A DNA stretch of 64,000 bases, from positions 32,001 through 96,000 of the forward strand of contig JAYZAL010000064.1 of the NCBI GenBank assembly GCA_036339735.1, read 5' to 3'. The notes under the pieces were generated by a model, which searched no databases, was not told where the DNA came from, and saw only the letters and a list, made by a program, of their open reading frames with translations. Origin of the DNA: Candidatus Poribacteria bacterium (lineage in GTDB: Bacteria > Poribacteria > WGA-4E > UBA9662). Shown one piece after another: positions 13,395-33,584 of this stretch (position 1 is its first letter; every line of letters begins with the position of its first letter). The translations under genes and the position numbers were made by a program.

Positions 13395-13742
13395 CTAAGC
13401 ACTCCTACTTTCCCACTTCCGATCTATCGAATAGACAAAAGCCAAAACCTCAGCTACTATTTGATAAAACTCTGGAGGGACTTCAGTTCCAACTTCAAGT
13501 TTGGCCAAGGCCTCCACTACGTCTGGCTGTTCGTAAATCGGTACGTCATGTTGCCTTGCTAATTCAACTATCCGATTAGCAATTTCGCCATCACCACCCG
13601 CGAGTATTTTGGGCGCTGAGTCAAATTCAGGTTGATAACGCAGAGCAATAGCCTTCTGTTTTTTTCTTAGTAATATATCCTTACTATTTTCTATTATTTC
13701 AACATCGCTGAGATTTTTTCGTTCGCTATGCACTGACATCAA
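13395..13742 (-). CDS. stand-alone FlhB cytoplasmic-domain-like protein (EscU/YscU/HrcU family, YlqH/FlhX type)
   Basis: KAIALRY...APKILAGG.G.IA.RI..LA..H.VP, EVPPEFYQIVAEVLAFVY; no TM domain and no NPTH. Confidence 0.9.
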   Translation of the reverse strand: MMSVHSERKNLSDVEIIENSKDILLRKKQKAIALRYQPEFDSAPKILAGGDGEIANRIVELARQHDVPIYEQPDVVEALAKLEVGTEVPPEFYQIVAEVLAFVYSIDRKWESRSA

Positions 13743-15051
13743 TTCGTCCCATGTTTACTGATATTTGTGAAACGTCAGTAATAACCTCTACTCCAGTTCT
13801 CTTCGAATCAATAACTTGAAATGCGACATCATCCAAATTGTAACGGATTGACTGCATACGTTCAAGGAGGTCAACTTTCTCATCAATAATGAAACTATTA
13901 TACTGTTGTTTCTCTGACATTATTAGACAGTTCATCTGTCTCTTTTGAACACGCAAATCGAACTTTAAGCTGCCAAGATTTTCTGTTTCAATTGACATTT
14001 CCAAGTGCATATTTTCCGTATCCAGTTTATCTTGGTCGTCTAAGTTATACCCCAAAACTTCCGCTGATAAATCCTTCTTATTTACACTGTATGGAATCTG
14101 AAAATAAACTTGGCTTCGTCCCGTAATCAATGGGTTCATAGCCAATTCTAACGCATCAATCTGACACAATACCGAATCGATGGCTTTATGCACTCGACTC
14201 AAGGATTCATCGGAGTACGGCATTTCTAATACGAGTTGGGTCTTGAATTGAATCAAATTGGCTTTTAGGCTTTTTCTCTGCAGGAATGCCTCTGAGGCAT
14301 TTGACCTTTGACCAGCTAAAAACAATTTTCGTTCGTATGACAACCCCAACAGGTTCACAGATTGAGAAATTTCTTCAGCTAAATTGTTTGAATTAGGGGC
14401 AATTGAACGCGTTGCTTCCAGAATCTGTCGATACAATTCGCTCTTACTACCAAAAGAATTAATCGAATCTTTAATTGAAGCCGTCAGTTCACTTCGTAAT
14501 AACCTAAATCTCTGGTGTAATTTGTCTTGCCGATAATAAAGATTTTTTAAAGCTCGAAACAGATGAGATTTAGGCGGAAAGTTTAACAACCAGCTAGTAA
14601 AGAGAAAGTTTGTACTGTAGCTCGTTCCTGATAGCGAATCAGCTTTTTGAGCATACTGAGCGAAATCAATCACGATACAAGGATCAATTGGAGTTTTATT
14701 CTGATACAGAATTTGAGCAAAATCGAGATGTCGCTGATTAGAAGGTAAACCAGCATCGTTAAGTAGAGATGTAATCTCAGAGTCAAATTTAGAGGGCATC
14801 GTACTTGTAGGAATAAAACTCATTCGTACTCCTCCTTTCAACGATATGACTTTTGCCTCAACTTCTTGACCTCGTCTGAGCCTAGATTTTATTTCAGTGA
14901 CTAACTTCTGTCCCTTAAAATTGATTAGGAATTGATTATTACCCAATACACGAACAACAATACCCTTTAAGATTTCGCCAGATTTTAATCCGGATTTAAA
15001 TGATGAAATCGACGGGTCTGTGACACGACCTAAAATTGGAGTCAATTTCAT
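13726..15051 (-). CDS. FliK-like protein (YlqG-type)
   Basis: N-terminal small beta domain (GEILKGIVV...FLINFKG); C-terminal YFQIP...IETENLGSLKFDL resembling the FliK-C fold; overlaps the FlhB-C-like gene. Confidence 0.6.
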   Translation of the reverse strand: MKLTPILGRVTDPSISSFKSGLKSGEILKGIVVRVLGNNQFLINFKGQKLVTEIKSRLRRGQEVEAKVISLKGGVRMSFIPTSTMPSKFDSEITSLLNDAGLPSNQRHLDFAQILYQNKTPIDPCIVIDFAQYAQKADSLSGTSYSTNFLFTSWLLNFPPKSHLFRALKNLYYRQDKLHQRFRLLRSELTASIKDSINSFGSKSELYRQILEATRSIAPNSNNLAEEISQSVNLLGLSYERKLFLAGQRSNASEAFLQRKSLKANLIQFKTQLVLEMPYSDESLSRVHKAIDSVLCQIDALELAMNPLITGRSQVYFQIPYSVNKKDLSAEVLGYNLDDQDKLDTENMHLEMSIETENLGSLKFDLRVQKRQMNCLIMSEKQQYNSFIIDEKVDLLERMQSIRYNLDDVAFQVIDSKRTGVEVITDVSQISVNMGRIDVSA

Positions 15052-15581: not shown

Positions 15582-17351
15582 CTACCTTAAAGTAAAAGTA
15601 CTCATTGAAGGTGAAATATCCCGACCTAGATTATCTCTACCAATTACAGTGGCAACGACTTTAACCCCATCTTTTGGTAAACTATCGAGTTGGTAACCTA
15701 CAGTCCAAACACTCTGTGTCTGATCGATTCTTTTCATCATCAATGTTCGAGGCGTTAAATCAGGCGATTCTGGGAAAGTCAAACCAACAGTGAGGTCTGC
15801 AACATTATCCAAGATCGATACAATTTTAAACTCGTAGCGCAGAATTGGATTACGAATTAATATAACGGGAAACGTTTTTTCTGTATCAGTAGGAAGATCA
15901 AAAACAGATATTGTTATAGCTGTCTCTTCCACTTTCTTGTTTTCAAATTTAGCAATTACTTTGACTTTTTCAGAAGCCCCAACCCAGTCCCTTTGAGGTC
16001 TCAATGTCAAAATTCTATTCTTAATAATAACCGACACATGTTCAGAAGAGATAGCTTCCCACACAATATCATTAAAAACTTCCCTAGGTTCTATGTCTAA
16101 ATAACGGTTCAGATCGATATGGTGTTCTTCATTCTTAATCAATGACACCGTATTTGGAAGAGTTAAGTCAAGTTTTACAAAAGGAAGTGGTTGAACTGAA
16201 ACTTCTAACTCGCCACGGTCAAAATTACCATCAGGATCTGTAACAATGACAAACATTTTAAACTTTTTTGTATTGGCTACTGGATTCAATGACCGAAATG
16301 TCAGACGTGGTGGGTTATCAATAATACCTTTCGACTTGTCTAAACGATTTGCGCTGACTCCACCGATGACAAGTGCAGTTGGCATCCCATCAATAGACCA
16401 GCTTAATTCGGCGTTCTTATGATCCATATCTTTGACAAAGTTGTCTAGTAGCAAAATCTCCTCTGAACCAGCACGAAAACTTAGCTCAGGAAAACGAATC
16501 AAAACAGGAATCCCCTTATTATCAAGCCATAACGTTGCGGTGTCGATAGCGAGCGAATCACCAATCTTCAAAGAAACCCGCAAGTCAACTTTGACGACTT
16601 CGCCTTTTGATTTGGGCAAAAGGTCTCCCACGATAAGCTGGTTGGCTACATTCAATTCAACTTTCTTAGGTCTTCCTTTATCATCTTCTGCATTCAGTAC
16701 CCAATTAAGTTTTGGTCTTCCTTCTGTTCCTGAAATTATCACAAATTTATCTAATGGAACATTCTTGCCTGGATTTTCGGAAACAAATCTCTGAAGGTCA
16801 TATCGATCAATTTTGACTAACGTGTTCTTAACCTCAATATTAGCATCAACTAAATCTTTAAATGATCTCAGGCGAGGCTTTCCATCCTTAAGTTGTGTGA
16901 ATAGAGTATATTTCCCTTTGTTCCAGTGTACTTTTGGGTCTCGGTTGAATAGGATACGTGTTTTTCCACTTCCACGACCAACAAACTGAACTTTTGCAAC
17001 AACACCACGTCCTTTTGGGTAAGGAGCAGCATTCGAAATGACAGCAAACCCGACTTCTGTTGTGGATACAATCTTATTCAGGACCACAGTCCCTGTGTAA
17101 AATGGCCCTTGAACAAAAGGCGTCTCTTGGTTTACCAACCGTAACTTGTTAGGCTCGTATGTTAAATATACTTCGACACCAGCACTTGGAGTATCGCCTA
17201 CATCAATAAAAATCTCGAGATCTATTAAATCTCCTTGTTGAACTGTGATATCACTTTTTAGACTATCAGTACTACGAAGCCGAATCTCTGCTCCACTGGC
17301 TGCAGTCTTAAACAATAGAACTAAAAAAATATAGGAGAGTAGTTTATTCAC
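15582..17351 (-). CDS. secreted protein with N-terminal cohesin-like domain and cadherin/Ig-like repeats
   Basis: Signal peptide; VQQGDLIDLEIFID...GVEVYLTYEPNKLRL...G.GVVAKVQF..G.GKTRILF (cohesin pattern); LDNFVKDMD...LSWS and VTDPDG (cadherin-like). Confidence 0.65.
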   Translation of the reverse strand: MNKLLSYIFLVLLFKTAASGAEIRLRSTDSLKSDITVQQGDLIDLEIFIDVGDTPSAGVEVYLTYEPNKLRLVNQETPFVQGPFYTGTVVLNKIVSTTEVGFAVISNAAPYPKGRGVVAKVQFVGRGSGKTRILFNRDPKVHWNKGKYTLFTQLKDGKPRLRSFKDLVDANIEVKNTLVKIDRYDLQRFVSENPGKNVPLDKFVIISGTEGRPKLNWVLNAEDDKGRPKKVELNVANQLIVGDLLPKSKGEVVKVDLRVSLKIGDSLAIDTATLWLDNKGIPVLIRFPELSFRAGSEEILLLDNFVKDMDHKNAELSWSIDGMPTALVIGGVSANRLDKSKGIIDNPPRLTFRSLNPVANTKKFKMFVIVTDPDGNFDRGELEVSVQPLPFVKLDLTLPNTVSLIKNEEHHIDLNRYLDIEPREVFNDIVWEAISSEHVSVIIKNRILTLRPQRDWVGASEKVKVIAKFENKKVEETAITISVFDLPTDTEKTFPVILIRNPILRYEFKIVSILDNVADLTVGLTFPESPDLTPRTLMMKRIDQTQSVWTVGYQLDSLPKDGVKVVATVIGRDNLGRDISPSMSTFTLR

Positions 17352-18517
17352 TGCGCTTCTAATGCTCGTTTGATTTGCAGTACTTTCTCAATGTATCTCT
17401 GCGTTTCTGAAGGTAAACTGTTCCTTTTTTTTACCCGAGTAGGTCCGGCATTATAAGCCGCTAAAGCTAACGAGACCTGACCAAATGAATCTATTTGCTG
17501 TTTCAAGTACCTAGCACCACCTGATATATTTTGTCGTGGGTCGAACACATTTGTAACACCAAGATCCTTCGCCGTACCCGCCATAAGTTGGGTCAATCCA
17601 CTTGCTTTTTTAGGAGAAACGGCACGACTATTTCCACCAGACTCAACATAAACAAGTGCAATCAACAATTCAGGGTCTAAGTCATTATCCCTGGCCGCCG
17701 ATCGAATCAGGTTCTTGTACCGATTTACTCGAGCAAGTATTTTGTCGTTTAATTCTTGCTTCCTTTTCGATTTTGCGTCAACTGAAGTGAGTTTTTTTTG
17801 CTGACTTTTTTTAGGTTTTGTGTGGACGAAGCCTTTTTTTGCTAATGACAACTTCTCAGTTGAGGAAGGCGGGGAGATAAAGGGTTTCGCTCCCGAACTT
17901 TTCACCAAATCGATTCTATTATCTGCTTGAGACGATCTAGATTCAATTGATGATTTGACTAGCTCTGCCTGGGATTGGTTATGAGGTTTCAATAAACTTG
18001 ATACAACCGTTGAATTTTGGCTCTGGAACTTATCAAATTCCTTGGCTTTTTGATGAGATTGGTGATGGACAAGTGCCAACCTTTGACGATTTCGACGAAC
18101 TATTGCAGCCTTTGTGTAAAGAGCAGATGCTGTGGACTCTTTCCTTACATCCGAACGACTAGATTTCGAAGCCAAAGGAGTAGGGGGTGAAGATTCTATT
18201 CTTACCTGTGGAATTTTTTGATCCCAGGACTTTGTATTAATAAGAGATTTACCATACAAAGATTCATCACTCTTAATTTTCCAATGAGAAATGACTTTGA
18301 CATCCTTAATGAAGGTCACCCCTCCGTTGTATGCAACATAAGTAGATGAATCAACCGCAGTATAATCTATCCATCGATTTCCCCGATAATCTGTCACAAG
18401 CAACTTATAAATTGTTTTCACTTTTGCCTCAGAATTAGAAACAAAACAGGTAAAGGCAAGAAAGCCTAGAACGGCTAGATATAGAAGCCGATGGAAATTC
18501 AAAATTAGTATGCCCAT
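17348..18517 (-). CDS. lytic transglycosylase (C-terminal SLT domain) with N-terminal signal and low-complexity linker
   Basis: ALVYVESGGN.RAVSPK.A.GL.QLM, FDPRQNI.GG..YL, ALAAYNAGP, ETQ.YI. Confidence 0.92.
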   Translation of the reverse strand: MGILILNFHRLLYLAVLGFLAFTCFVSNSEAKVKTIYKLLVTDYRGNRWIDYTAVDSSTYVAYNGGVTFIKDVKVISHWKIKSDESLYGKSLINTKSWDQKIPQVRIESSPPTPLASKSSRSDVRKESTASALYTKAAIVRRNRQRLALVHHQSHQKAKEFDKFQSQNSTVVSSLLKPHNQSQAELVKSSIESRSSQADNRIDLVKSSGAKPFISPPSSTEKLSLAKKGFVHTKPKKSQQKKLTSVDAKSKRKQELNDKILARVNRYKNLIRSAARDNDLDPELLIALVYVESGGNSRAVSPKKASGLTQLMAGTAKDLGVTNVFDPRQNISGGARYLKQQIDSFGQVSLALAAYNAGPTRVKKRNSLPSETQRYIEKVLQIKRALEAQ

Positions 18518-18572: not shown

Positions 18573-21500
18573 CTATTTCAATATTACCATCTTTTTTAAA
18601 GATGTTTGGTGATCCGTTTGTAGCTCATAGAAGTAGACTCCACTCGCAACTTGTTCACCATTTGCGTTACGGCCATCCCAATATGCTGCAAATCCTTGGC
18701 TAGAATAATCTCCTGCAGGCATTATTCCCAAGTTCAATTCCTTAACTAAAATACCTGTCGCATCGTAAATCCGAATCGATACATGCGATTGCTGACTGAG
18801 CTTATAGGGTAACCATGTCTCAGGGTTGAACGGGTTTGGATAGTTCTGGGCTAGTTCAGTTTTCTGCGGCTTCTTTAAAGTCTCAATAGTTTGAACCCAT
18901 CCCCCTTCAGGGTGAGAGTAAATGTTACGGCCTCCATCCACCACTACTAAACGTTCTAGTTTAATGTCGCCATAACCTCCAGCTTTGCTGACAAAAGAGA
19001 AACTTGCCAAATCGGAAGTCCCAGAAGCATTACCATTCCTTCCAGCAATCATATTAGCTACCAAAATCCTGTTAAGACCATTTGATTCCTCAAAAGTACG
19101 ACTAATAAAGAATGTCTCGGCATTAGATGAATTACGTTCCAGAATTTGGCCTGCCTCTACCTTTTCGTCCATTAAATGCCACAGATCAGGATCGTAAGTC
19201 AGTTCGAACGCATAACCTTTTATACTGTCAACCTTAGCCATGACTTGAAGACTTATTGTTTCTCCCTCTTGAACAACCTGTGGCAAATTTGGCTTGATCA
19301 ATTGGAAGGTTTGCTCTACGATCGCAGGTGAAGCTGCTGGCGGCGGACCACCATCGCCAGTAGGTGGAACACCCAATCCCCCAAAGTCACTAACAATGAT
19401 GTCGTAGTCCACTAGGTTGATGTTACCATCGTCGTTCAAATCGGCATTATCATTGAATTGCTCATGCCCCTCTTGAGTCCCCCAAGCTTGCATAAACAAG
19501 TTCATGTCCCCTATGTTTATCCTGTTATCACCATCAATATCTCCACCAATTAAGTATTGATCCTGATCTTTCGAGTAAATGTCGATACCACGCAAATTAT
19601 CACCAGGAATCACTACTAAAGTGGAAGTATTAGCTTTGGGTTGGTATTGCCCACGCAAATAGGAATTTGCCTTGGCAACTAGCTCCCAAGTACCTCTTGG
19701 TACCCCTTGAATAGTATATGACCCGTCAGCTTTAGTTGTTACTTGAATCCCAGGTTTAGCTTCATCTTCATCATTTGCAATACTATCAATTTCTAAATCT
19801 TCAGTTGTACCTGGTTTACGCAAAGAGAATGTAACTTCAGCTGAATGATCTCGACGTCCTTCCAATTTAACTTTTCCAAAAATAGCTGCATGAGGCAAAA
19901 TCTGAATAGCTAGAGCCGGCGTATTGGCTATCGGTGAGACATTCTCCCGAGTATCTGTTAAAGGATCAATTATAGCAATTGAAGTCCCTCGATTACTAGC
20001 AGCCTCATCGAAATCAAATGAAACTGTAGTATTGATCGGGCGTGTACCCTCGTGTTCTTTCACCTTAAAAGTTAAGGTTGTCAATGTTCGATAGATACCA
20101 GTCCTAACAGCTTTAGAATTATTTTTAATAACTATACTGTAATCTAACTGAAACCCACTAATACCGTTGGCCATACTATCCTCAATAGTATCATCGTGGG
20201 TGTCGTTTTCTAGAACCTCTTGCTGGTTTTCTTTAGCATCATCTAGATCAAAAATTAACGATGATTTGTCGACCCCATCATCTGAAGAGGACAGTTGGCG
20301 AAATGGTAAAGCCGAATCCTGAATTTCCAGGTACCGGTCATCAAAAGTCATGTAAATGCTTGCCCCTTTGATCTTAACATCCGGACTTCTTAGTTGAACA
20401 CGGACCTGAAACTCTTCGCCTGGTCCTGCCGCAATAGATGCTGGGCGTAAGCGGATATTCACCTTACGAATGGTTACACTACCGGCAGCTTTACTATATG
20501 CTTCATTACCACTACCATCCGTCGCTTTCGCATAAATAAAATAAGAACCGTTTAAACCAAATTCATTCGCAGATTCGAAAGATTCAATATCCCAGGAGTA
20601 AGACCCTAAGCCGGCTGAAGTCTGGTAATTAGTGGTCAAAACACCCGACTGGACTGTATTATCACTCACTTCACCTATGATTATCCTAGCGTCATCCTCC
20701 AATGTATGATAATACAAGTTAATTTTTATATCATTGTTATCGATATCTTCTGTATGCCATGAAACAGTATATTCATCTATCGCACGAGAGCCCTGAAGAA
20801 TCGGTGAAATTAGCTTAATCGTTGGCGGATATTTGACAATTAGCCGCCCCCTACTGCGCAACGCCTTTTCTTTAATTTCTGATTCTTCTTTAGCTTTCGT
20901 TGGGTCTTTATCGCTGATTATGGCATAGATATAGTAGCCAGAAAGGCTTTCTTTCACATTTTGATTACGAAAGTTCCACTTGTACTGGCCTAAATCCTCA
21001 TCTTCATCTTCACTCAAGTTGCCGGCAATAAACTCAGTGTTTTCCCGTAATGTTACCAAATCTAAGGTCGAGAGATTCTTGTCGCTATAATAAAGACTGA
21101 TCCTAGCGTCCCCTAGATTTTTTTTGTCAGTCCACTGAACTATAAAAGAGCCATCTGTAATATCAACATCGTTCTGAGGTGTTAGATTGCTCAGGAAAAC
21201 ATCATGCCTCACCTCAACTTGCCCCGGAGCTCGAACCAGTTCAGAACTTATGTCAGTGTCTTCTATAATGCCGTATATCGTATAGAGTCCTTCCGGAATA
21301 TTACGTGTTTCCCAGATAATATTGGTTTCTTCTGCTCCAACAGTCAATTCCACTGGTATGGAATCCGAAGGATCGATACTTGGTATGGCTGGAACTAAAA
21401 CGCTTGTGTCACTCTCTGTTGCAACACGGGCTTTCAAGCCAGCAATGTCCTCAGGCCCGAAATCGTCTTTTCCAGAATAAAACAACGTAATTTTTGCCTT

Positions 21501-22703
21501 CGGGTTAGGTCCGCTAGCACTGAACCCAACTTGACCTTGATCATCAAAAATCACGGCAGGTACTTTGAATGGCGAGAGTATTTTTAGTACAGGCTTTTCT
21601 GGCAATTTAGTAATAACAGGACCGGACGAACTGAAGTCTTCTGCAGGACCTGCAGGAACAGATTTACTGAAAGTAAAACTCGTTCCCTGCTGAAGAATAA
21701 CGCCGATCGTATCACCTTCCCTAGCCTTACCTTCGGTCTTTGTTAAAGCTGCCAAAAGAAAAGTGTTTTGCGTTGAGCCTTCAGGTTCCGCCCCAAGTAA
21801 TGGTTGATCAAGTTCAAATGACAGGCTTATAAGATCTGTTTTAATTTCCGCAATTGGTGCACCATCGTTTTCATCTAGGACACGCAAAGGTTCAATATCT
21901 TTGTAAAGATAAAGTGTCTCAACCGACTCACGGACGAAAGGTGGAGCCAATTGAAGAGTCATCGACATCATATTTTGGGCTATATCCGACCTGACTTCAA
22001 TTGCAGATAAAGCAACTCTCTTATTAAAGGAAACTGGCTTCCCATCATTGAGAGCCGTTACTATGATTGATTCGATCCCCTTAACCATTGGCCCATCAAT
22101 CCGTCTCTGATCTTCCATCGCGGAAACCCTATCGGCCTCACGAAAGAAAAAAGCATGACTGCTAAGATAAAGAATTACCTGATTACCTCTCGTGGTTTTC
22201 CCGGGATTAAGAACGACGACTAAAAGGAAATTAGTGGTTGTTTCTTCCCCAAGTTTACCTACAGGTAACCCAAGCCCTGCTTTTTGCAAGTTTAGCGGGG
22301 CTCGGCTATTGATATCAAGAACCTCTGAGGTAATCCACTCAGCGCTATCTGGCTTTCCATCTTTGTTGACGTCTTCATACAGTTCGATCTTGGCAATTGA
22401 AGTGTCCTCCACCCCTTTATTCTGTTCTTCCAATTTAAGATTACTTACTTTCAGGAAAAACCATTCATCTTGCCCTCCATCATCTGTAATAGCTATATTT
22501 GCAACTACAGCTTGCAAGTCACCAGGATCAACCAATTCATCCGAAGTAACTGGTTGGACATTGATGTTAGTGACAAGGCCCCAAGACAAATAGGGCGAAC
22601 AGAAAACACCCACAATACAAAGTATTAAACCAGCGTAAATAGAACTATATGTTCGGTAGAGTAAAGAACAGCTAATAGACACTGCTCGGTCAAACTTCCT
22701 CAT
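18573..22703 (-). CDS. 1376-aa secreted scaffold-like protein: Ig-like repeats, cohesin, X/carboxypeptidase-regulatory-like, dockerin, cohesin, T9SS-like/FlgD-Ig C-terminal domain
   Basis: Duplicated Ca-loop GDIDGDNRINIGD / ADLNDDGNINLVD; two cohesin-pattern segments; C-terminal LAQNYPNPFNPETW...WDGRN..GE.VASGVYFY...KMVILK. Confidence 0.8.
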   Translation of the reverse strand: MRKFDRAVSISCSLLYRTYSSIYAGLILCIVGVFCSPYLSWGLVTNINVQPVTSDELVDPGDLQAVVANIAITDDGGQDEWFFLKVSNLKLEEQNKGVEDTSIAKIELYEDVNKDGKPDSAEWITSEVLDINSRAPLNLQKAGLGLPVGKLGEETTTNFLLVVVLNPGKTTRGNQVILYLSSHAFFFREADRVSAMEDQRRIDGPMVKGIESIIVTALNDGKPVSFNKRVALSAIEVRSDIAQNMMSMTLQLAPPFVRESVETLYLYKDIEPLRVLDENDGAPIAEIKTDLISLSFELDQPLLGAEPEGSTQNTFLLAALTKTEGKAREGDTIGVILQQGTSFTFSKSVPAGPAEDFSSSGPVITKLPEKPVLKILSPFKVPAVIFDDQGQVGFSASGPNPKAKITLFYSGKDDFGPEDIAGLKARVATESDTSVLVPAIPSIDPSDSIPVELTVGAEETNIIWETRNIPEGLYTIYGIIEDTDISSELVRAPGQVEVRHDVFLSNLTPQNDVDITDGSFIVQWTDKKNLGDARISLYYSDKNLSTLDLVTLRENTEFIAGNLSEDEDEDLGQYKWNFRNQNVKESLSGYYIYAIISDKDPTKAKEESEIKEKALRSRGRLIVKYPPTIKLISPILQGSRAIDEYTVSWHTEDIDNNDIKINLYYHTLEDDARIIIGEVSDNTVQSGVLTTNYQTSAGLGSYSWDIESFESANEFGLNGSYFIYAKATDGSGNEAYSKAAGSVTIRKVNIRLRPASIAAGPGEEFQVRVQLRSPDVKIKGASIYMTFDDRYLEIQDSALPFRQLSSSDDGVDKSSLIFDLDDAKENQQEVLENDTHDDTIEDSMANGISGFQLDYSIVIKNNSKAVRTGIYRTLTTLTFKVKEHEGTRPINTTVSFDFDEAASNRGTSIAIIDPLTDTRENVSPIANTPALAIQILPHAAIFGKVKLEGRRDHSAEVTFSLRKPGTTEDLEIDSIANDEDEAKPGIQVTTKADGSYTIQGVPRGTWELVAKANSYLRGQYQPKANTSTLVVIPGDNLRGIDIYSKDQDQYLIGGDIDGDNRINIGDMNLFMQAWGTQEGHEQFNDNADLNDDGNINLVDYDIIVSDFGGLGVPPTGDGGPPPAASPAIVEQTFQLIKPNLPQVVQEGETISLQVMAKVDSIKGYAFELTYDPDLWHLMDEKVEAGQILERNSSNAETFFISRTFEESNGLNRILVANMIAGRNGNASGTSDLASFSFVSKAGGYGDIKLERLVVVDGGRNIYSHPEGGWVQTIETLKKPQKTELAQNYPNPFNPETWLPYKLSQQSHVSIRIYDATGILVKELNLGIMPAGDYSSQGFAAYWDGRNANGEQVASGVYFYELQTDHQTSLKKMVILK

Positions 22704-27133: not shown

Positions 27134-28699
27134 TTACCGCTTGAGACCTAGTGCTTCCTGAAGAATGCTATCTGAAGTTGTAATAATCCGTGAGTTAGCT
27201 TGAAAACCCCTTTCAGTTGTTATTAGGTCAGTAAATTCTTCAGTCAAGTCAACATTAGACATCTCTAGTGCTCCCGATGAGATTTCACCCATGTTACGAC
27301 CTCCAGCAGCAATATACGATGGAGCGCCAGAACTAGGAGACACTGCAAACATACTATCTTGAATCGTATTCAATCCTTCTGGGTTAGGTATGTCAGCCAA
27401 AGCGACTTGGGCAATTGAGCGACTTATACCATTAGAGAAAATCCCATTGATAGTTCCGTCAGCGCCAATACTAAATGAGGTTAACGTCCCAGGCCCCACA
27501 CCGTCTTGCCGAGATGCCATAGCATCTGAAGTGGAAGCAAACTGAGTCAAATTACCAAACTGAAGGTCAAAGGTTAAATCTTTTCCATCACCTTTGGGCT
27601 TTATAGTAACCGTTGGCTCAGCAGGCGTAACAAACTCAAACGCGCCAGAATCTCCATTGAAACGTACTAAGCCGCTACCACTAACACCATCAGCCTCAAC
27701 ATCTGTAGCACCGGTTGCAGCCCAAGTCCAAGTGTTATCAGTGTCTTTCTGCTTTGTAAATGTTAACTCTACATCGTGGCGTTGACCAACACCATCGTAT
27801 ACACCAATTGTACTCTTATGTACTGCGGACACGACGTTGATTGAAGCAATCCCACTATTAAGATTTTCACCAAAACTGAGAGTTACACCATTACCATTAG
27901 GATCCTGAAGTGTTACTGCCTGATCCGCACCAGGTATTGCTACGTCAGGCCCACCATCGAGAGAGGCTACCAAATTACCACTTTCAGGGTCAGCAGGATC
28001 TCTTTTCACAATAATCCTGTGCGCTCCAGTCGACAACTGACTGTCGGCAGGTAAATCATAAGTCTTAATTCCAGTACCACCACTTTCCGTCAACTCGGCT
28101 TGTCCCGCTCGAGTATCTAAATTTCCCATATACTCAACAAATCCGGTTGATTTAGCGATTGATTTCGAGAAAGGAAAGTTAATCTTCCCAACGGGCTTAC
28201 TACTATCAACTAACCCTGTTGCACTATCAGCGTTCCAGCCCATGACTCTATAACCATTTGGCCTGTACATCATATCACCGTTAGTGTCAATTCCAAAGTT
28301 TCCTGCTCTTGTAAAAACTTTGACAGAATTCGAAGACGCTGCCACTCCTTTACTGTTTGGATCTACTTGAGCCGCGTCGGGGGCTCCCAGAACAAACATC
28401 CCCTTACCACGAACCATCAAATCCGTCGCAACGTCAGTGATTTGCGGACTCCCATTTTTGTGATTAACGTCAATGGAACTTATCTGCACGCCTGCGCCCA
28501 CCTGATTAGGATTAGTGGCACCTCTTTGACCTGTAGCTGCAACTCCACCTTTCAGAGTTTGAGCAAATGTTTCTCTAAAAATGACCCGAGATTTTTTAAA
28601 TCCAGTTGTGTTTATATTAGCTAGATTATTTCCAATAATATTAACCTTAGCCTGATGGGTCCGTAACCCTGTCAGCCCTGAATATAATGCACCAATCAT
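27134..28699 (-). CDS. flgE: flagellar hook protein
   Basis: GNNLANINTTGFK, FTRAGNF, VYDGVG..H, LEMSNVDLTEEF...RGFQANSR. Confidence 0.95.
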   Translation of the reverse strand: MIGALYSGLTGLRTHQAKVNIIGNNLANINTTGFKKSRVIFRETFAQTLKGGVAATGQRGATNPNQVGAGVQISSIDVNHKNGSPQITDVATDLMVRGKGMFVLGAPDAAQVDPNSKGVAASSNSVKVFTRAGNFGIDTNGDMMYRPNGYRVMGWNADSATGLVDSSKPVGKINFPFSKSIAKSTGFVEYMGNLDTRAGQAELTESGGTGIKTYDLPADSQLSTGAHRIIVKRDPADPESGNLVASLDGGPDVAIPGADQAVTLQDPNGNGVTLSFGENLNSGIASINVVSAVHKSTIGVYDGVGQRHDVELTFTKQKDTDNTWTWAATGATDVEADGVSGSGLVRFNGDSGAFEFVTPAEPTVTIKPKGDGKDLTFDLQFGNLTQFASTSDAMASRQDGVGPGTLTSFSIGADGTINGIFSNGISRSIAQVALADIPNPEGLNTIQDSMFAVSPSSGAPSYIAAGGRNMGEISSGALEMSNVDLTEEFTDLITTERGFQANSRIITTSDSILQEALGLKR

Positions 28700-28710
28700 T
28701 GTTTATCTCC

Positions 28711-28760
28711 TCTTTAATCTTTATCTTCTTAGACGTTCTTCAATCTTTATCTTCTTAGAC
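28711..28760. repeat. 24-nt tandem direct repeat (period 26, one mismatch) between flgC and flgE
   Basis: tctttaatctttatcttcttagac (28711-28734) and tcttcaatctttatcttcttagac (28737-28760). Confidence 0.9.
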
Positions 28761-29174
28761 ACTTCGGCCAATACTTAGTGCTTCACGCGCCATCGTTTTT
28801 GCCGCATTAATAGCTTGTACGTTTGCCTCATAAGCACGAGTCGCAGAAATTAAATCAACCATTTCACTGACGATATTGACATTTGGCATGTGGACATAGC
28901 CATTTTCATCTGCATCCGGATGTCCTGGATCATATCGCAACTGAAGTGGGTTAGTCAGCGAATGATCTTCTCGAATACCATTCTTCGGAATATGAACGCC
29001 CTTCAAATCAGGCCTTGGCATAAAGACAACCATCTTCCTTCTAAATGGTTCACCTGTTTCCGTTCGTGTGGTATTGACATTAGCAATGTTGTTAGAGATA
29101 ACTTCCATACGTAATCGCTCGGCTGTTAACCCTGAACCACTAGCTTGAATCGCCGAAATAAAACTCACAACCAT
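28755..29174 (-). CDS. flgC: flagellar basal-body rod protein FlgC
   Basis: SGLTAERLRMEVISNNIAN, YDPGHPDAD..GYV.MPNVN, RAYEAN. Confidence 0.96.
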   Translation of the reverse strand: MVVSFISAIQASGSGLTAERLRMEVISNNIANVNTTRTETGEPFRRKMVVFMPRPDLKGVHIPKNGIREDHSLTNPLQLRYDPGHPDADENGYVHMPNVNIVSEMVDLISATRAYEANVQAINAAKTMAREALSIGRSV

Positions 29175-29180
29175 TTACTC

Positions 29181-29576
29181 CTAAACAATAATTGCACTAT
29201 CTATATTGGTGAAAACGTTATCCTTCATATTATGTCCGTCTATCACCGTAATAACAGTCCGATTTTTTACACTAACAATAAATGCCAAATCGTCCATTAA
29301 CAACAAGGACTCACTAGCACCTTTTTGGGATGCTCTCTCGACAGCATTTTCGATTTTTACCAAATCTTGTCGGCTGAGATCTATTTGACGAACAGCCAAC
29401 CTTCCCTCAGCATGAGCACTAAAATTTATCCCCTTACGCTCTCCGATCTGTTTTTTGAGAGCCTTTTTAAAAGAAGCCTTTGTATGAGGCGAACCGACCC
29501 CTTTATTCGACCGGAAATCGTTTTTCTGAACTAAGGGCGTAGTTACGTTTTCTGTTCGCTGGATCATGTTCATCAC
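29181..29576 (-). CDS. putative flagellar operon protein (TIGR02530-like)
   Basis: FSAHA..RL..R.I, A..KG..ESL, IVSVKNRTVIT, NVFTNIDSAII; lies downstream of flgD. Confidence 0.85.
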   Translation of the reverse strand: MMNMIQRTENVTTPLVQKNDFRSNKGVGSPHTKASFKKALKKQIGERKGINFSAHAEGRLAVRQIDLSRQDLVKIENAVERASQKGASESLLLMDDLAFIVSVKNRTVITVIDGHNMKDNVFTNIDSAIIV

Positions 29577-29607
29577 TGTTCAAAATCTATCGTAATTTCC
29601 GTTTCAA

Positions 29608-30024
29608 TTATTGGGAAATCTTCTGTACATTGTTGACATTGACGTCCCGCTCCCCAACCCTGAGGATAGTCTTTCCATCTAACAAACGGACCGATGATAC
29701 GACGCCATTAATCACTCGATCACTTGTACCGCTTTCAGCTGCTTCGATTTCTTTCCCAATTAATGAGCTAGCCTCTAGCAAAGCCACTGACGCAAAACTT
29801 TTATTCAGGTTTTGCATTTGTTCCAAAGCACTAAACTCTGCCATTTGGGCCACGAATTGCTGGTTGTCCATGGGCTCAAGTGGATTCTGATGTTGGAGCT
29901 GAGTGGTTAACAAACGAAGAAAAGCTTCTTTACCTAGCGTATTAGTCGGTGTCCGCTTTGCAATTGGACTAGCCACATCTCCTAACATTTCATCGAGATG
30001 GCCGACAGGGCCAATGTTACTCAT
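29608..30024 (-). CDS. flgD: flagellar hook capping protein
   Basis: LGKEAFLRLLTTQLQHQNPLEPMD..QFVAQMA.FS.LEQ, ASSLIGK. Confidence 0.95.
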   Translation of the reverse strand: MSNIGPVGHLDEMLGDVASPIAKRTPTNTLGKEAFLRLLTTQLQHQNPLEPMDNQQFVAQMAEFSALEQMQNLNKSFASVALLEASSLIGKEIEAAESGTSDRVINGVVSSVRLLDGKTILRVGERDVNVNNVQKISQ

Positions 30025-30038
30025 TGTAATTTGCTCCT

Positions 30039-31892
30039 TTAAACTAGATGGTCTATCCCAGTGGAAGAAAAGTTTATATGTTGGGCTCCCATTTGCTCGT
30101 CGCTCCTCGAGCTACCTGATAACTCATACGAAACGTCATTGTTTGGTGTACCTGCTCCTTGAAATCGACGATACCCCAAATCTTGGTCCCAATCACTAAA
30201 GTTTTGCCACCCACCTTGTTGTTCCGAATTATTAGACATTACCTGAAAGTTATCGATTTGAATTCCATGTTCCGATAGCGCGTTTCTTAATTGTGCCAAG
30301 TTACCTCTAACAATCTCACTTACCATCCCATTTCTCGCCTGAACTTGTGCTGACAATACACTATCTTCAAAAACTAAACGAATATGAAGCCTACCGAGGG
30401 AAGGAGGCTCCAAGTCGATAGTCGCCTGTTGAAACCCACGCCCTAACTGGGGCTGTAGCTTGTCTGCGATTTGGATGATCACTTGATCAGAACTAACAAT
30501 CTGAGTTGGTAGGGTCGCGTCGCCCTGAGCTCCACTTAGCACATTTGCTAAACTGACAGTATCCATACGCTGAATCTGATTCCAACTCAATACCATATTT
30601 TGTGTGCCTTGAGCTGTTTCAGTATATCCTTGACTAATCTCGAATTGAGGTAATTGGAAACCTCTATACTGAGACTGTAACCCTCGCTGGTTAAGGGTCT
30701 GATGATTTGGTGAATTCTGCTGCTGTAGATTGAACTGTAACTGGCGTAACTGGTTCAAACTTTCGTTGCCAGGTTCAAACGCTTTACCTGTCAACATATT
30801 TGAAAAATTAGATTGAGGCATATTTTCAGCTGGTGGCAAAACAATCACTCGTTCTACTGGCACTTCCAACTGACTAGCCAAATCCTCTACATTACTAACA
30901 TCACCAAAGGGTAATAGTTCAGTCTCAATCAATTTTTTTTCGTTAGTGTCGAATACACCCACCACACCTTTTGAGTCATTCGATTCAGTCGAAACCTGGA
31001 CTTGGCTCTCGAAATCCTGCCCATCCTCAAATCCCAAGGCCATAGGTGTTTGTGCTACCTGAACGCCTGAATCTTCAGTATGAGTCGAACTAAATCCATG
31101 GGGGCCCAACTTAGAATCAAACTCATTTATATCGTCATGATTAATCCCATCAGCAGAAGTTCCAGATTCGGCCGAAACCGACATAACCTCTTGCTCTAAC
31201 AACAGATCTGCCATCGACAGTTCACCTGACTGCAGATTACTTTCTAAATCTCCCTGCCTGCCTCTAGCGCTTTCAGCGAAACGTGCAACAATCTGCTCTG
31301 CCAACTGATCTAGTTCTGTCTCACCGAGTGCTTCGATATTAAGATCTGAAAGCAACTTTGGCAAATTTATATTCGAAGTAGCTACAGAGGCCTCTGAACC
31401 ATCCAATGAACTCAACCCCTGATTACCGGCCTTATCATCGAAAAGCGTTTTTTGTCCGCCTGAAAGTTGCTGGATCAACATTTCAGCCAATCCTAACTGG
31501 CCGGTTTTTGCAATTTCCATTGCATACTTTTCGTCTAGCATGCCGTTGAAAATTTTCATCGTGGTACTGTTTTCGCCTAAAAAATCAGTCTCAGTAGACG
31601 ATTGCCGCATAGTTGAAAGTAATTGAGCAACAAAAACGGATTCAAACTCTTGAGCAGCAGTTCGAAGCTTACTCTGTTCAGGAGTTAAAGGCCCCTGAGA
31701 TGATAATGACAATGAAGAGGCTCGGAGCGAATCCGCCTGTTGCTGGCCTCCACTTTTGTCATTGCCCATCATTGCTGATATTTTAGCCCCTAGCTTTTGA
31801 GCTTTAGACTTGTATGTATCATAGTCAGTCGACGCAGCGCCCATTGAGCCTTTACTGGATTCTTGTTGCAATAAGACAGGGAAAATATCCAT
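30039..31892 (-). CDS. FlgJ rod-binding domain fused to FliK hook-length control protein
   Basis: N-part KLRTAAQEFESVFVAQLL..MR...MLDEKYA...LGLAEMLIQQL (FlgJ-N); C-part ATIDLEPPSLGRLHIRL...NLAQLRNALSEHGI (FliK-C); single open frame between flgI and flgD. Confidence 0.85.
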   Translation of the reverse strand: MDIFPVLLQQESSKGSMGAASTDYDTYKSKAQKLGAKISAMMGNDKSGGQQQADSLRASSLSLSSQGPLTPEQSKLRTAAQEFESVFVAQLLSTMRQSSTETDFLGENSTTMKIFNGMLDEKYAMEIAKTGQLGLAEMLIQQLSGGQKTLFDDKAGNQGLSSLDGSEASVATSNINLPKLLSDLNIEALGETELDQLAEQIVARFAESARGRQGDLESNLQSGELSMADLLLEQEVMSVSAESGTSADGINHDDINEFDSKLGPHGFSSTHTEDSGVQVAQTPMALGFEDGQDFESQVQVSTESNDSKGVVGVFDTNEKKLIETELLPFGDVSNVEDLASQLEVPVERVIVLPPAENMPQSNFSNMLTGKAFEPGNESLNQLRQLQFNLQQQNSPNHQTLNQRGLQSQYRGFQLPQFEISQGYTETAQGTQNMVLSWNQIQRMDTVSLANVLSGAQGDATLPTQIVSSDQVIIQIADKLQPQLGRGFQQATIDLEPPSLGRLHIRLVFEDSVLSAQVQARNGMVSEIVRGNLAQLRNALSEHGIQIDNFQVMSNNSEQQGGWQNFSDWDQDLGYRRFQGAGTPNNDVSYELSGSSRSDEQMGAQHINFSSTGIDHLV

Positions 31893-31902
31893 TATAACTT
31901 CC

Positions 31903-32922
31903 TTACATAATGATCAGCTTGGCGTGCAATGCGCCAGCTTTTTCCATCAGTTTCAAAACTTCGATCAACTCCATAGTAGATGTACCCGCAGCTTTTAAAG
32001 CCGCTACAACGTCATCTAAAGTTGACTCACCACCAGGCAAACGATTTATTTTAATAGTCAGGCTATTTGCACCCGTTCCGTTAAGCGATACAGCAAAAGT
32101 AGAAATCCGTACTCCTTCACCGATAACCACGGCACCAGTTTTTTCATTAACCACAACCGTTGCTACAGTATCAGGCTCAACGGTCAATTCACCTAACATC
32201 GAAACAAAACCGACTAACTTCTTTTTGTAAGCATCAGGAATTCGAACTTGAATAGTACTTGGGTCTTTCGGCTCCGCTATCCCTTCCCATAATGTTTCGT
32301 TTATTTTCTTTGTAACTAAACTAGCTGTACTAAAGTCGGGATGATTCAAACGAAGAGATAAAACTTCCAAGTCATCGAAGTTGGTGTCAATCTTATTTAC
32401 TACTAATCCACCTTTTGCGATACTACCAATCGGAGCCTCTCGTTCACCAGGAGCTGCCACTGATGCAATCACTCCCTGAGCCGTTGCATAAACACGACCA
32501 TCAGCCGCCTGAAGCCGAGCGAAAAGAAGTGTACCACCACTCAGAGTTTTTGCATCACCGACAGAAGAAACCATTACATCAATCTGATCTCCAGCTTTAG
32601 AAAAAGGCGGCAACTCCGCAGTAACTGATACAGCTGCGATGTTTCGAGCTTGCAATCCATCCGGACTAATCCTTAACCCCTCCATTCGAGTCAGCATGTT
32701 AGACACAGCTTGCCTGGCTAAAGCCAATCGTGTACTATCACCAGTACCGGGCAAACCGACCACAATCCCCATCCCCCAGAGCTGATTAGAGCTCATTTCT
32801 GGTATAGTCGTCACGTCTTTTATCCGGACTGATACGGAATTAGCTTCAAAAGCCGACCCTATAAATACACAAAAGAAGAAAATAATACAAACTTTCTGTT
32901 TCATATGATGAACTTTGCTCAA
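31903..32922 (-). CDS. flgI: flagellar P-ring protein
   Basis: RIKD, NQLWG.G.VVGL.GTGD, AAV.VTA.LPPF, SSVGDAK.L.GG.L, YA.AQG, NEKTG.VV.G, AGAL.A.L. Confidence 0.95.
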   Translation of the reverse strand: MSKVHHMKQKVCIIFFFCVFIGSAFEANSVSVRIKDVTTIPEMSSNQLWGMGIVVGLPGTGDSTRLALARQAVSNMLTRMEGLRISPDGLQARNIAAVSVTAELPPFSKAGDQIDVMVSSVGDAKTLSGGTLLFARLQAADGRVYATAQGVIASVAAPGEREAPIGSIAKGGLVVNKIDTNFDDLEVLSLRLNHPDFSTASLVTKKINETLWEGIAEPKDPSTIQVRIPDAYKKKLVGFVSMLGELTVEPDTVATVVVNEKTGAVVIGEGVRISTFAVSLNGTGANSLTIKINRLPGGESTLDDVVAALKAAGTSTMELIEVLKLMEKAGALHAKLIIM

Positions 32923-33584
32923 AACAACAACCCCAAAAGGCTCCCAACAAACCGAAATGGGAAAGTAATCACGCGAACAATGGGGCCTTGTTTTTGTACT
33001 GCTGACCTAGGGGCAACATACCGAATATTAGCTTCAGCTAGTGCGGTTGAAATAATACTATTATCAGGTGCAATGTCTAGTGGCCTTACTATTCCTTCTA
33101 CAAAAATCTCCGTTTCTTGATCATCAATTGCGGTTTGCTGAGTTCCCGAAATCCTGAGGTTCCCATTTTCCAGAACTTCTACTATCGTTGCAGTTACAGT
33201 TGCAACGAAACTAGTTTGTCGCGATGTCGATCGACTACCAGACTTCTGAGTCTGCCCCGAAAGAGAAGCAGAACCAGCTCCAGTTGGAATTGGACTTAAG
33301 AAACCTGCACCTGCTGGTATCTCGGTTGCTGCATCAAGCTTTGCACTTCGATTTCTAGCTGACTGCATATTCTGATTAGCTTGGGCATTTTGAACCACTA
33401 CCACTCGAATCAAATCCCCTACTTTTTTGCTAATCAAATCGCTGTAAACTTCACTGCCGAGTTGACCTTCACTATACAAAATCTGGGCTGGCAACATGGA
33501 AAACCACTGCCCCAAAACAAGAAGTGACAATAAGACCAGCAGAGCAAAAGTAAAATGTGTTTTTCGTGTTACCCTCAACATCAC
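32919..33584 (-). CDS. flgH: flagellar L-ring protein
   Basis: VGDLI.V, VLENGNLRI.G, GIVRP.DI..DN.I.S..LA.A.I; lies between flgA and flgI. Confidence 0.9.
   Translation of the reverse strand: MMLRVTRKTHFTFALLVLLSLLVLGQWFSMLPAQILYSEGQLGSEVYSDLISKKVGDLIRVVVVQNAQANQNMQSARNRSAKLDAATEIPAGAGFLSPIPTGAGSASLSGQTQKSGSRSTSRQTSFVATVTATIVEVLENGNLRISGTQQTAIDDQETEIFVEGIVRPLDIAPDNSIISTALAEANIRYVAPRSAVQKQGPIVRVITFPFRFVGSLLGLLF

Follow-up and report, generated by a model that had tools for sequence, protein, structure and literature searches.

Introduction

FlgJ and FliK are both early substrates of the flagellar export apparatus. The N-terminal domain of FlgJ scaffolds or caps the growing rod; in the two-domain FlgJ of beta- and gamma-proteobacteria this rod cap is followed by a glucosaminidase, and in the Rhodobacter FlgJ/SltF pair a single-domain FlgJ is accompanied by a separate wall-lytic enzyme. 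FliK passes through the export channel with its N-terminus leading, and this end interacts with the distal cap; hook length is set by the length of the protein, and FlhB is flipped by its C-terminal domain together with the tail. The Borrelia FlgJ is reported to be hydrolase-less and accompanied by a separate lytic enzyme, BB0259 (PMC8517470). According to passages of another report, FliK secretion also takes place while the rod is being assembled, and the same passages consider what prevents an early switch at the rod-cap stage (PMC13344023); on that account FlgJ and FliK would be exported in the same stage. Here we describe a gene that joins the two in one reading frame. It lies on the minus strand of a 64,000-nucleotide stretch from a Candidatus Poribacteria bacterium (GenBank assembly GCA_036339735.1, contig JAYZAL010000064.1, positions 32,001 to 96,000 of the forward strand; hereafter the window) and encodes a FlgJ-type rod-binding domain, a long linker and a FliK-type switch domain.

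Results

FlgJ-type rod-binding and FliK switch domains share one reading frame

The fused gene was called as a single open reading frame (ORF) of 617 amino acids (aa), which begins with ATG 10 nt past the flgI stop codon, has a Shine-Dalgarno-like AAGGAA motif 5' of its start and ends 14 nt before the beginning of flgD. An initial annotation, made from the letters alone, had read this frame as a FlgJ rod-binding motif and a FliK C-terminal domain connected by an acidic linker rich in glutamine and serine, situated where flgJ (after flgI) and fliK (before flgD) would each be expected, and this description stands. Both Pfam domains exceed their cut-offs: Rod-binding (PF10135) scores 43.6 bits (cut-off 25.1) over residues 94-142 (window 31467-31613), and Flg_hook (PF02120) scores 67.5 bits (cut-off 29.8) over residues 481-559 (window 30216-30452). 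The motif positions given at the time deviate from the hidden Markov model (HMM) envelopes by no more than about 25-65 nt; the linker (residues 166-460) contains 14.9% D+E, 4.7% K+R, 10.5% S and 10.2% Q; and flgI lies upstream and flgD downstream of the gene. Automated Pfam annotation already detects both domains, and the database labels read 'hypothetical protein' at NCBI and, for relatives, 'FlgJ' at JGI. The gene and its parts are as follows:

30039..31892, minus strand: whole fused gene FlgJ-N::FliK (one ORF, both Pfam domains above cut-off, intact in four sequencing runs)
31677..31892, minus strand: leader at the N-terminus, residues 1-72 (S 18.6%, of low complexity; predicted local distance difference test score, pLDDT, <50 for residues 1-69)
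31401..31676, minus strand: FlgJ-type rod-binding domain, residues 73-164 (PF10135 core 94-142, partial TIGR02541 match)
30513..31397, minus strand: acidic S/Q-rich linker, residues 166-460, predicted disordered and presumed to be the ruler (composition; pLDDT mostly <50)
30216..30452, minus strand: FliK C-terminal switch (T3S4) domain, residues 481-559 (PF02120, match to 2RRL)
30042..30215, minus strand: disordered C-terminal tail, residues 560-617, ending in GIDHLV (pLDDT <50 for 556-617)

The leader is probably the type III export-signal region; it is missing or far shorter in fusions from outside family f1, to which the window genome belongs, and the rod-binding domain there begins at about residue 20-30. 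The NCBIfam FlgJ models align to no more than residues 73-164 and fall far short of the cut-offs set for full-length proteins. TIGR02541, which represents the two-domain FlgJ with muramidase, reaches 50.3 bits against a cut-off of 193, with model positions 20-103 of 294 aligned, as is expected of a FlgJ N-domain without the muramidase, and Pfam detected no hydrolase domain in the 617-aa protein. This equivalog score speaks only against the two-domain FlgJ type and not against a single-domain FlgJ. At the other end of the protein, the fusion-family profile matched the C-terminal domain of Salmonella FliK (PDB 2RRL) with an E value of 1.1e-8, and the terminal motif h-D/N-h-h-V/L was aligned in 16/16 fusions. 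In an AlphaFold2 model computed from an alignment of 27 fusions, residues ~70-145 are helical (helices 71-101, 110-130 and 135-145; pLDDT 53-65) and residues ~468-555 form an alpha/beta region (pLDDT 64-75); pLDDT falls below 50 for residues 146-466, with short exceptions, and for 556-617, and averages 43 over the whole protein. A complex prediction for FlgD and fusion residues 60-170 scored 0.00 in a run without controls, and the ESM Atlas yielded generic FliK clusters only, with scores of 0.88.

The architecture combines features of FliK and of single-domain FlgJ

Several defining features of FliK are present in the fusion. Like FliK of Salmonella and E. coli, the fusion has a C-terminal T3S4 domain (PF02120, 2RRL), a long disordered ruler region before it and a disordered tail after it, and its gene lies beside flgD and flgE; unlike FliK, it has a FlgJ-type Rod-binding domain in place of the FliK N-terminal region, and its gene follows flgI, not fliJ. 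No FlgJ-like N-domain was detected at E < 0.1 in any of 89 stand-alone FliK-type representatives (0/89). Two features that mark a single-domain FlgJ, a Rod-binding domain and a gene place after flgI, were likewise present, and as in species with a separate lytic enzyme the rod-binding domain comes without a hydrolase and an SLT gene is found in the cluster. The fusion differs from such a FlgJ in the ~450 additional residues of ruler-like linker and FliK switch domain. With the two-domain FlgJ it shares an N-terminal rod-binding domain and an exported C-terminal passenger, but this passenger is a FliK T3S4 domain and not a muramidase. A full-text literature search, which lay outside subscription journals and supplements, found no description of a natural FlgJ-FliK fusion, and the fused architecture seems to be undescribed.

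The fused frame is intact in independent assemblies and under purifying selection

Among the public runs listed, 20 from marine or seawater samples, produced by 11 studies, contain the stretch 29600-32950 of the window; 8 of the 20 are RNA libraries. For a comparison of contigs over this interval we used two DNA and two RNA-library runs, which come from four studies. No indel was found across 29600-32950 in the contigs of the four runs, and a stop codon in the linker, for which the initial annotation had proposed a check, was not present in them either. Single contigs span the linker (X2 record 1, 29600-31441; X5 record 11, 29954-31427; X7 record 28, 30424-31502). The 33 base differences listed within the gene comprise 22 synonymous and 11 non-synonymous substitutions and 0 stops; 5 more differences in 29600-32950 are not itemised. 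Contigs from the RNA libraries cover the fused gene, a coverage that is no proof of transcription. Window positions 31441-31459, inside the rod-binding domain, are where contigs from several runs end or show a few substitutions, with no indel, which looks like a hotspot of strain variation.

The fused gene of the window genome (G000) was compared with its ortholog in G002, with these ratios of non-synonymous to synonymous substitution rates (dN/dS): leader 0.11, rod-binding domain 0.10, linker 0.20, T3S4 domain 0.02 and tail 0.33. As judged from these ratios, all segments of the fusion, the linker included, are under purifying selection.

The fusion is the only FlgJ and FliK predicted for a second flagellar gene set

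The window genome encodes 2 FlhA, 2 FliF and 2 full-length FlhB proteins, and its gene content identifies two complete flagellar gene sets. Set 1 lies on contigs C68, C24 and C77, where it has the order fliF…fliJ, three small genes, fliK (1025 aa), flgD, flgE and, elsewhere, flgA-flgH-flgI-flgJ (117 aa)-flgM-flgN-flgK-flgL. Set 2 is split between contig C79 and window positions 13395-35467. Its C79 part reads flgB-fliE-fliF-G-H-I-J, a 241-aa gene, flbD, motA, motB, fliL…fliR, flhB, flhA and contains no fliK, the 241-aa gene being the one that comes after fliJ; its window part reads flgG-flgA-flgH-flgI-FUSION-flgD-PF12611-flgC-flgE-flgF-flgN-flgK-flgL. Genome-wide, Rod-binding has two matches in G000, the fusion and the set 1 flgJ, and Flg_hook has three, the fusion, the set 1 fliK and a 441-aa protein below threshold. 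On these domain matches, the fusion is the only FlgJ and the only bona fide FliK encoded by set 2.

The 441-aa protein (window 13726-15051; weak Flg_hook match of 21-24 bits, sub-threshold) was considered as a FliK of set 2 and rejected: of the 176 genomes of the phylum, 15 encode a homologue, and 7 of these 15 have a single FlhA, so it is not a set-2-specific ruler. Its gene lies directly upstream of a gene for a 115-aa protein (window 13395-15051 for the pair, minus strand) that corresponds to the C-terminal part of FlhB only (PF01312 positions 262-335).

FlhA was found in 24/176 genomes of the phylum, and two full-length FlhA in 8 of these 24. The two-FlhA genomes are exactly those with the fusion, namely G000, G001, G002, G003, G005, G006, G047 and G058; these genomes are kin, so the co-occurrence is an association and not a statistical test. 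The 16 other FlhA genomes contain no fused frame, and matches to the fusion profile occurred there only in separate FlgJ-sized and FliK-sized frames, with no match at all in one of them, G048. All 8 fusion genomes also encode a FlgJ that stands alone. Extra short frames in G003 (C67), G005 (C34), G006 (C211) and G004 (C506) align to no more of the FlhA model than its N-terminal ~150-245 positions, contain an internal stop in some cases and may be truncated paralogues or remnants.

The fusion is conserved in Poribacteria and in metagenome proteins

Separate genes in all relatives would have spoken for two proteins at this locus; instead, the fused frame is retained in 33 protein clusters and in seven further Poribacteria genomes. 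A word-indexed protein search gave 34 homologous clusters, one of them named Candidatus Poribacteria, and 33/34 carry both Pfam domains. The 34th, P0034 (437 aa), has the N part only and ends at query residue 435; it is probably truncated. P0186, a 308-aa protein on a 37.9-kb contig, covers query residues 335-617 only, and both it and P0034 are possibly truncated or split forms. Among 41 related genomes, a match was found in all six members of family f1 besides G000 and in none of the 34 from the other three families of the order (0/34). One-piece frames of 619-661 aa are present in G001 (62% identity), G002 (89%), G003, G005 and G006. A survey of the phylum (176 genomes) with the fusion profile added two cases: G058, from another family, has a fused frame of 626 aa, and G047, which shares the class but not the order of G000, carries the halves of the fusion on two contig ends. 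With these the fused form spans three Poribacteria families.

An exhaustive HMMER search of 1.84 billion representatives returned 5468 matches at E <= 0.001. Among the best 150 of these, 15 matched both halves of the fusion (P0028, P0029, P0035, P0036, P0041, P0043-48, P0050 and P0052-54), with lengths of 354-1196 aa. Almost all of the length variation among fusions lies in the linker, which ranges from ~100 to ~900 residues. The divergent fusions P0041, P0045-48 and P0050-54 are metagenome proteins without an organism name in the cluster look-up. In named genomes of other phyla, including Thermodesulfobacteriota, Spirochaetota, Bacillota and Brocadiaceae, 0/150 FlgJ-bearing loci (0/80 + 0/70) had a fused frame, and fliK directly followed flgJ in 0/150. 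A scan of genome contigs with alignment A4 found the fusion in G047 only, a metagenome scan with A2 found one locus, unfused, and a word search with the A5 profile yielded nothing beyond 2 sequences already in that alignment.

In trees of the two domains the fused rows cluster, with 6 label changes for the N-domain and 3 for the C-domain compared with ~15 for shuffled labels. The alignments are short and deep support is weak, so one or few origins of the fusion are compatible with the trees, not proven; a fusion that arose once or a few times fits the data. The set 1 FlgJ and the fused N-domain are not recent duplicates of one another: they are <=37% identical over ~80 residues and sit in separate parts of the domain tree. 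The set 1 FliK domain is <=27% identical to any row of the C-domain tree and forms a long branch of its own. In the simplest history, the fliK-flgD-flgE block of a set 2 ancestor would have been relocated from after fliJ to after flgI-flgJ, which would have made flgJ and fliK adjacent and so led to their fusion.

The fused gene occupies the flgJ position in its cluster

The neighbours of the fused gene referred to here are:

31903..32922, minus strand: flgI, P-ring protein, directly upstream of the fusion (PF02119, 294.8 bits)
29608..30024, minus strand: flgD, hook cap, downstream of the fusion (PF03963 and FlgD tudor domain)
29181..29576, minus strand: flagellar operon protein PF12611 (Pfam)
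28755..29174, minus strand: FlgC-like rod protein, 139 aa (Pfam)
27134..28699, minus strand: flgE, hook protein (Pfam)
17348..18517, minus strand: SLT-domain lytic transglycosylase in the same-strand cluster (PF01464, 95.2 bits)

The fusion sits after flgI, the classical flgJ place, in every cluster examined. The order flgH-flgI-fusion-flgD-PF12611-flgC is common to the G000 window and G047, and the order flgG-flgA-flgH-flgI-fusion of the window is also found on L105 of G047. By analogy with species in which FlgJ and the lytic enzyme are separate, the SLT enzyme is a candidate for the wall-opening partner of a hydrolase-less FlgJ. The flgC gene of set 2 is displaced: on C79 (116404-117200) fliE directly follows flgB, and the FlgC-like gene stands in the window, between the PF12611 gene and flgE; the same displacement is seen in G047. 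Between flgL and the SLT gene (window 18573-22703, minus strand) lies a gene for a 1376-aa protein with FlgD Ig-like, type IX secretion C-terminal sorting and dockerin domains, which is odd in a flagellar cluster.

Discussion

We propose, with a probability of roughly 0.6, that the 617-aa protein is one polypeptide that serves as the FliK-type hook ruler and export switch of the second flagellar system and that binds the tip through an N-terminal rod-scaffold domain of the FlgJ type. As one of the early substrates, the fusion would be exported N-terminus first by the type III apparatus of the flagellum. During rod growth its N-terminal domain would dock on the distal rod subunits and could scaffold the rod, with the cell wall opened by the separate SLT enzyme of the cluster. 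Fusion molecules exported later would pass through rod plus hook and, once these are as long as the extended linker, the T3S4 domain and tail would linger at the FlhB of system 2 and bring about the switch to late substrates; each molecule would leave the channel fully, so that no static tether would form. The FlgJ-type domain may also cap the rod.

Several points weigh against this proposal. The set 1 FlgJ that stands alone in all eight fusion genomes could supply rod capping in trans; the FlgJ-type domain passes the Pfam cut-off but not the NCBIfam equivalog (50.3 vs 193 bits); the protein is possibly separated by proteolysis after synthesis; and export, rod capping and length control are predicted roles of the fusion, read from its sequence. 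That the fusion is both the rod scaffold and the ruler of system 2, with the FlgJ-type domain as tip sensor throughout rod and hook growth, is a tentative extension of the proposal.

Of the alternatives, the one that survives best, although we find it doubtful, is that the fusion is a ruler only: the FlgJ-like domain would have replaced the N-terminal domain of FliK as tip sensor, and the rod would be capped by the 117-aa FlgJ of set 1, or capping would be dispensable. The regular presence of that stand-alone FlgJ beside the fusion (8/8 genomes) is in keeping with this, and the hydrolase activity of FlgJ is reported not to be strictly required in Salmonella (PMC13584718). The terminal domains Flg_bb_rod and Flg_bbr_C are common to the products of flgC, flgE, flgF and flgG, and because rod and hook subunits have them in common, it is plausible that a domain which binds the rod could bind subunits of the hook too. 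Three observations speak against this reading: the set 1 FlgJ is distant from the fused N-domain, both in identity and in the tree; the fused gene has kept the flgJ position after flgI in all clusters examined; and its rod-binding domain is under strong constraint (dN/dS 0.10).

We think it improbable that two products, a separate FlgJ and a separate FliK, arise from the one frame through proteolysis of the linker or internal initiation. The linker is long and predicted to be disordered, hence accessible to proteases, and P0186, which is limited to query residues 335-617, may represent a form that is split or begins at an internal start. The internal start, which the initial annotation had offered as an alternative, finds no support, for no in-frame ATG, GTG or TTG within residues 165-460 is preceded by a Shine-Dalgarno-like motif; such sites in the fusion are confined to residues 138/139, 532 and 601. 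A C-terminal fragment would also be without an N-terminal export signal, and the linker itself is under purifying selection (dN/dS 0.20) and varies in length as ruler segments do.

Very improbable, in our view, is a static tether, in which the FlgJ cap would stay on the rod tip while the ruler trails through the channel and measures length in a new way. The domain order, with FlgJ N-terminal and FliK C-terminal, is what this reading has in its favour. The export channel fits one unfolded chain, and a resident one would block further subunits; moreover, FlgD and FlgE would no longer be exported after a switch at rod completion, although the genes for both lie just downstream, together with flgK and flgL, and it is this combination of channel blockage and premature switching that makes the tether unlikely. 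The initial annotation had likewise suggested that a rod cap joined to the ruler could measure rod-plus-hook length from the tip, by a different mechanism of length control, a claim we do not uphold: canonical FliK already spans tip to base, from an N-terminus placed at the distal cap to a C-terminal domain that acts on FlhB, so the geometry is not new and the novelty lies in the identity of the tip module. Finally, we dismiss almost entirely an assembly artefact, frameshift or decaying pseudogene joining two genes, given the absence of indels and stops in independent assemblies from four studies, the presence of both domains in 33 protein clusters from ENA, JGI and NCBI, the persistence of fused frames at ~20% overall identity and the purifying selection on every segment.

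Seen as a FliK-type ruler and switch with a FlgJ-type tip module, the fusion bears on a current question, raised in passages of PMC13344023, of what keeps the export switch unflipped when rod growth gives way to hook growth and of what is sensed by the N-terminus of the ruler. A fusion conserved for so long shows that both functions can reside on one exported chain; it is a natural test of the link between rod capping and length sensing and a concrete construct for work in model organisms. If the protein is indeed scaffold and ruler in one, rod capping and length measurement would be mechanistically coupled, the N-terminal domains of FlgJ and FliK would be interchangeable tip-binding modules, and the gene would provide a natural 'Rosetta-stone' link from the rod cap to the secretion-specificity switch. 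For the Poribacteria themselves, the analysis corrects database labels and documents dual flagellar systems in free-living pelagic marine members of the phylum.

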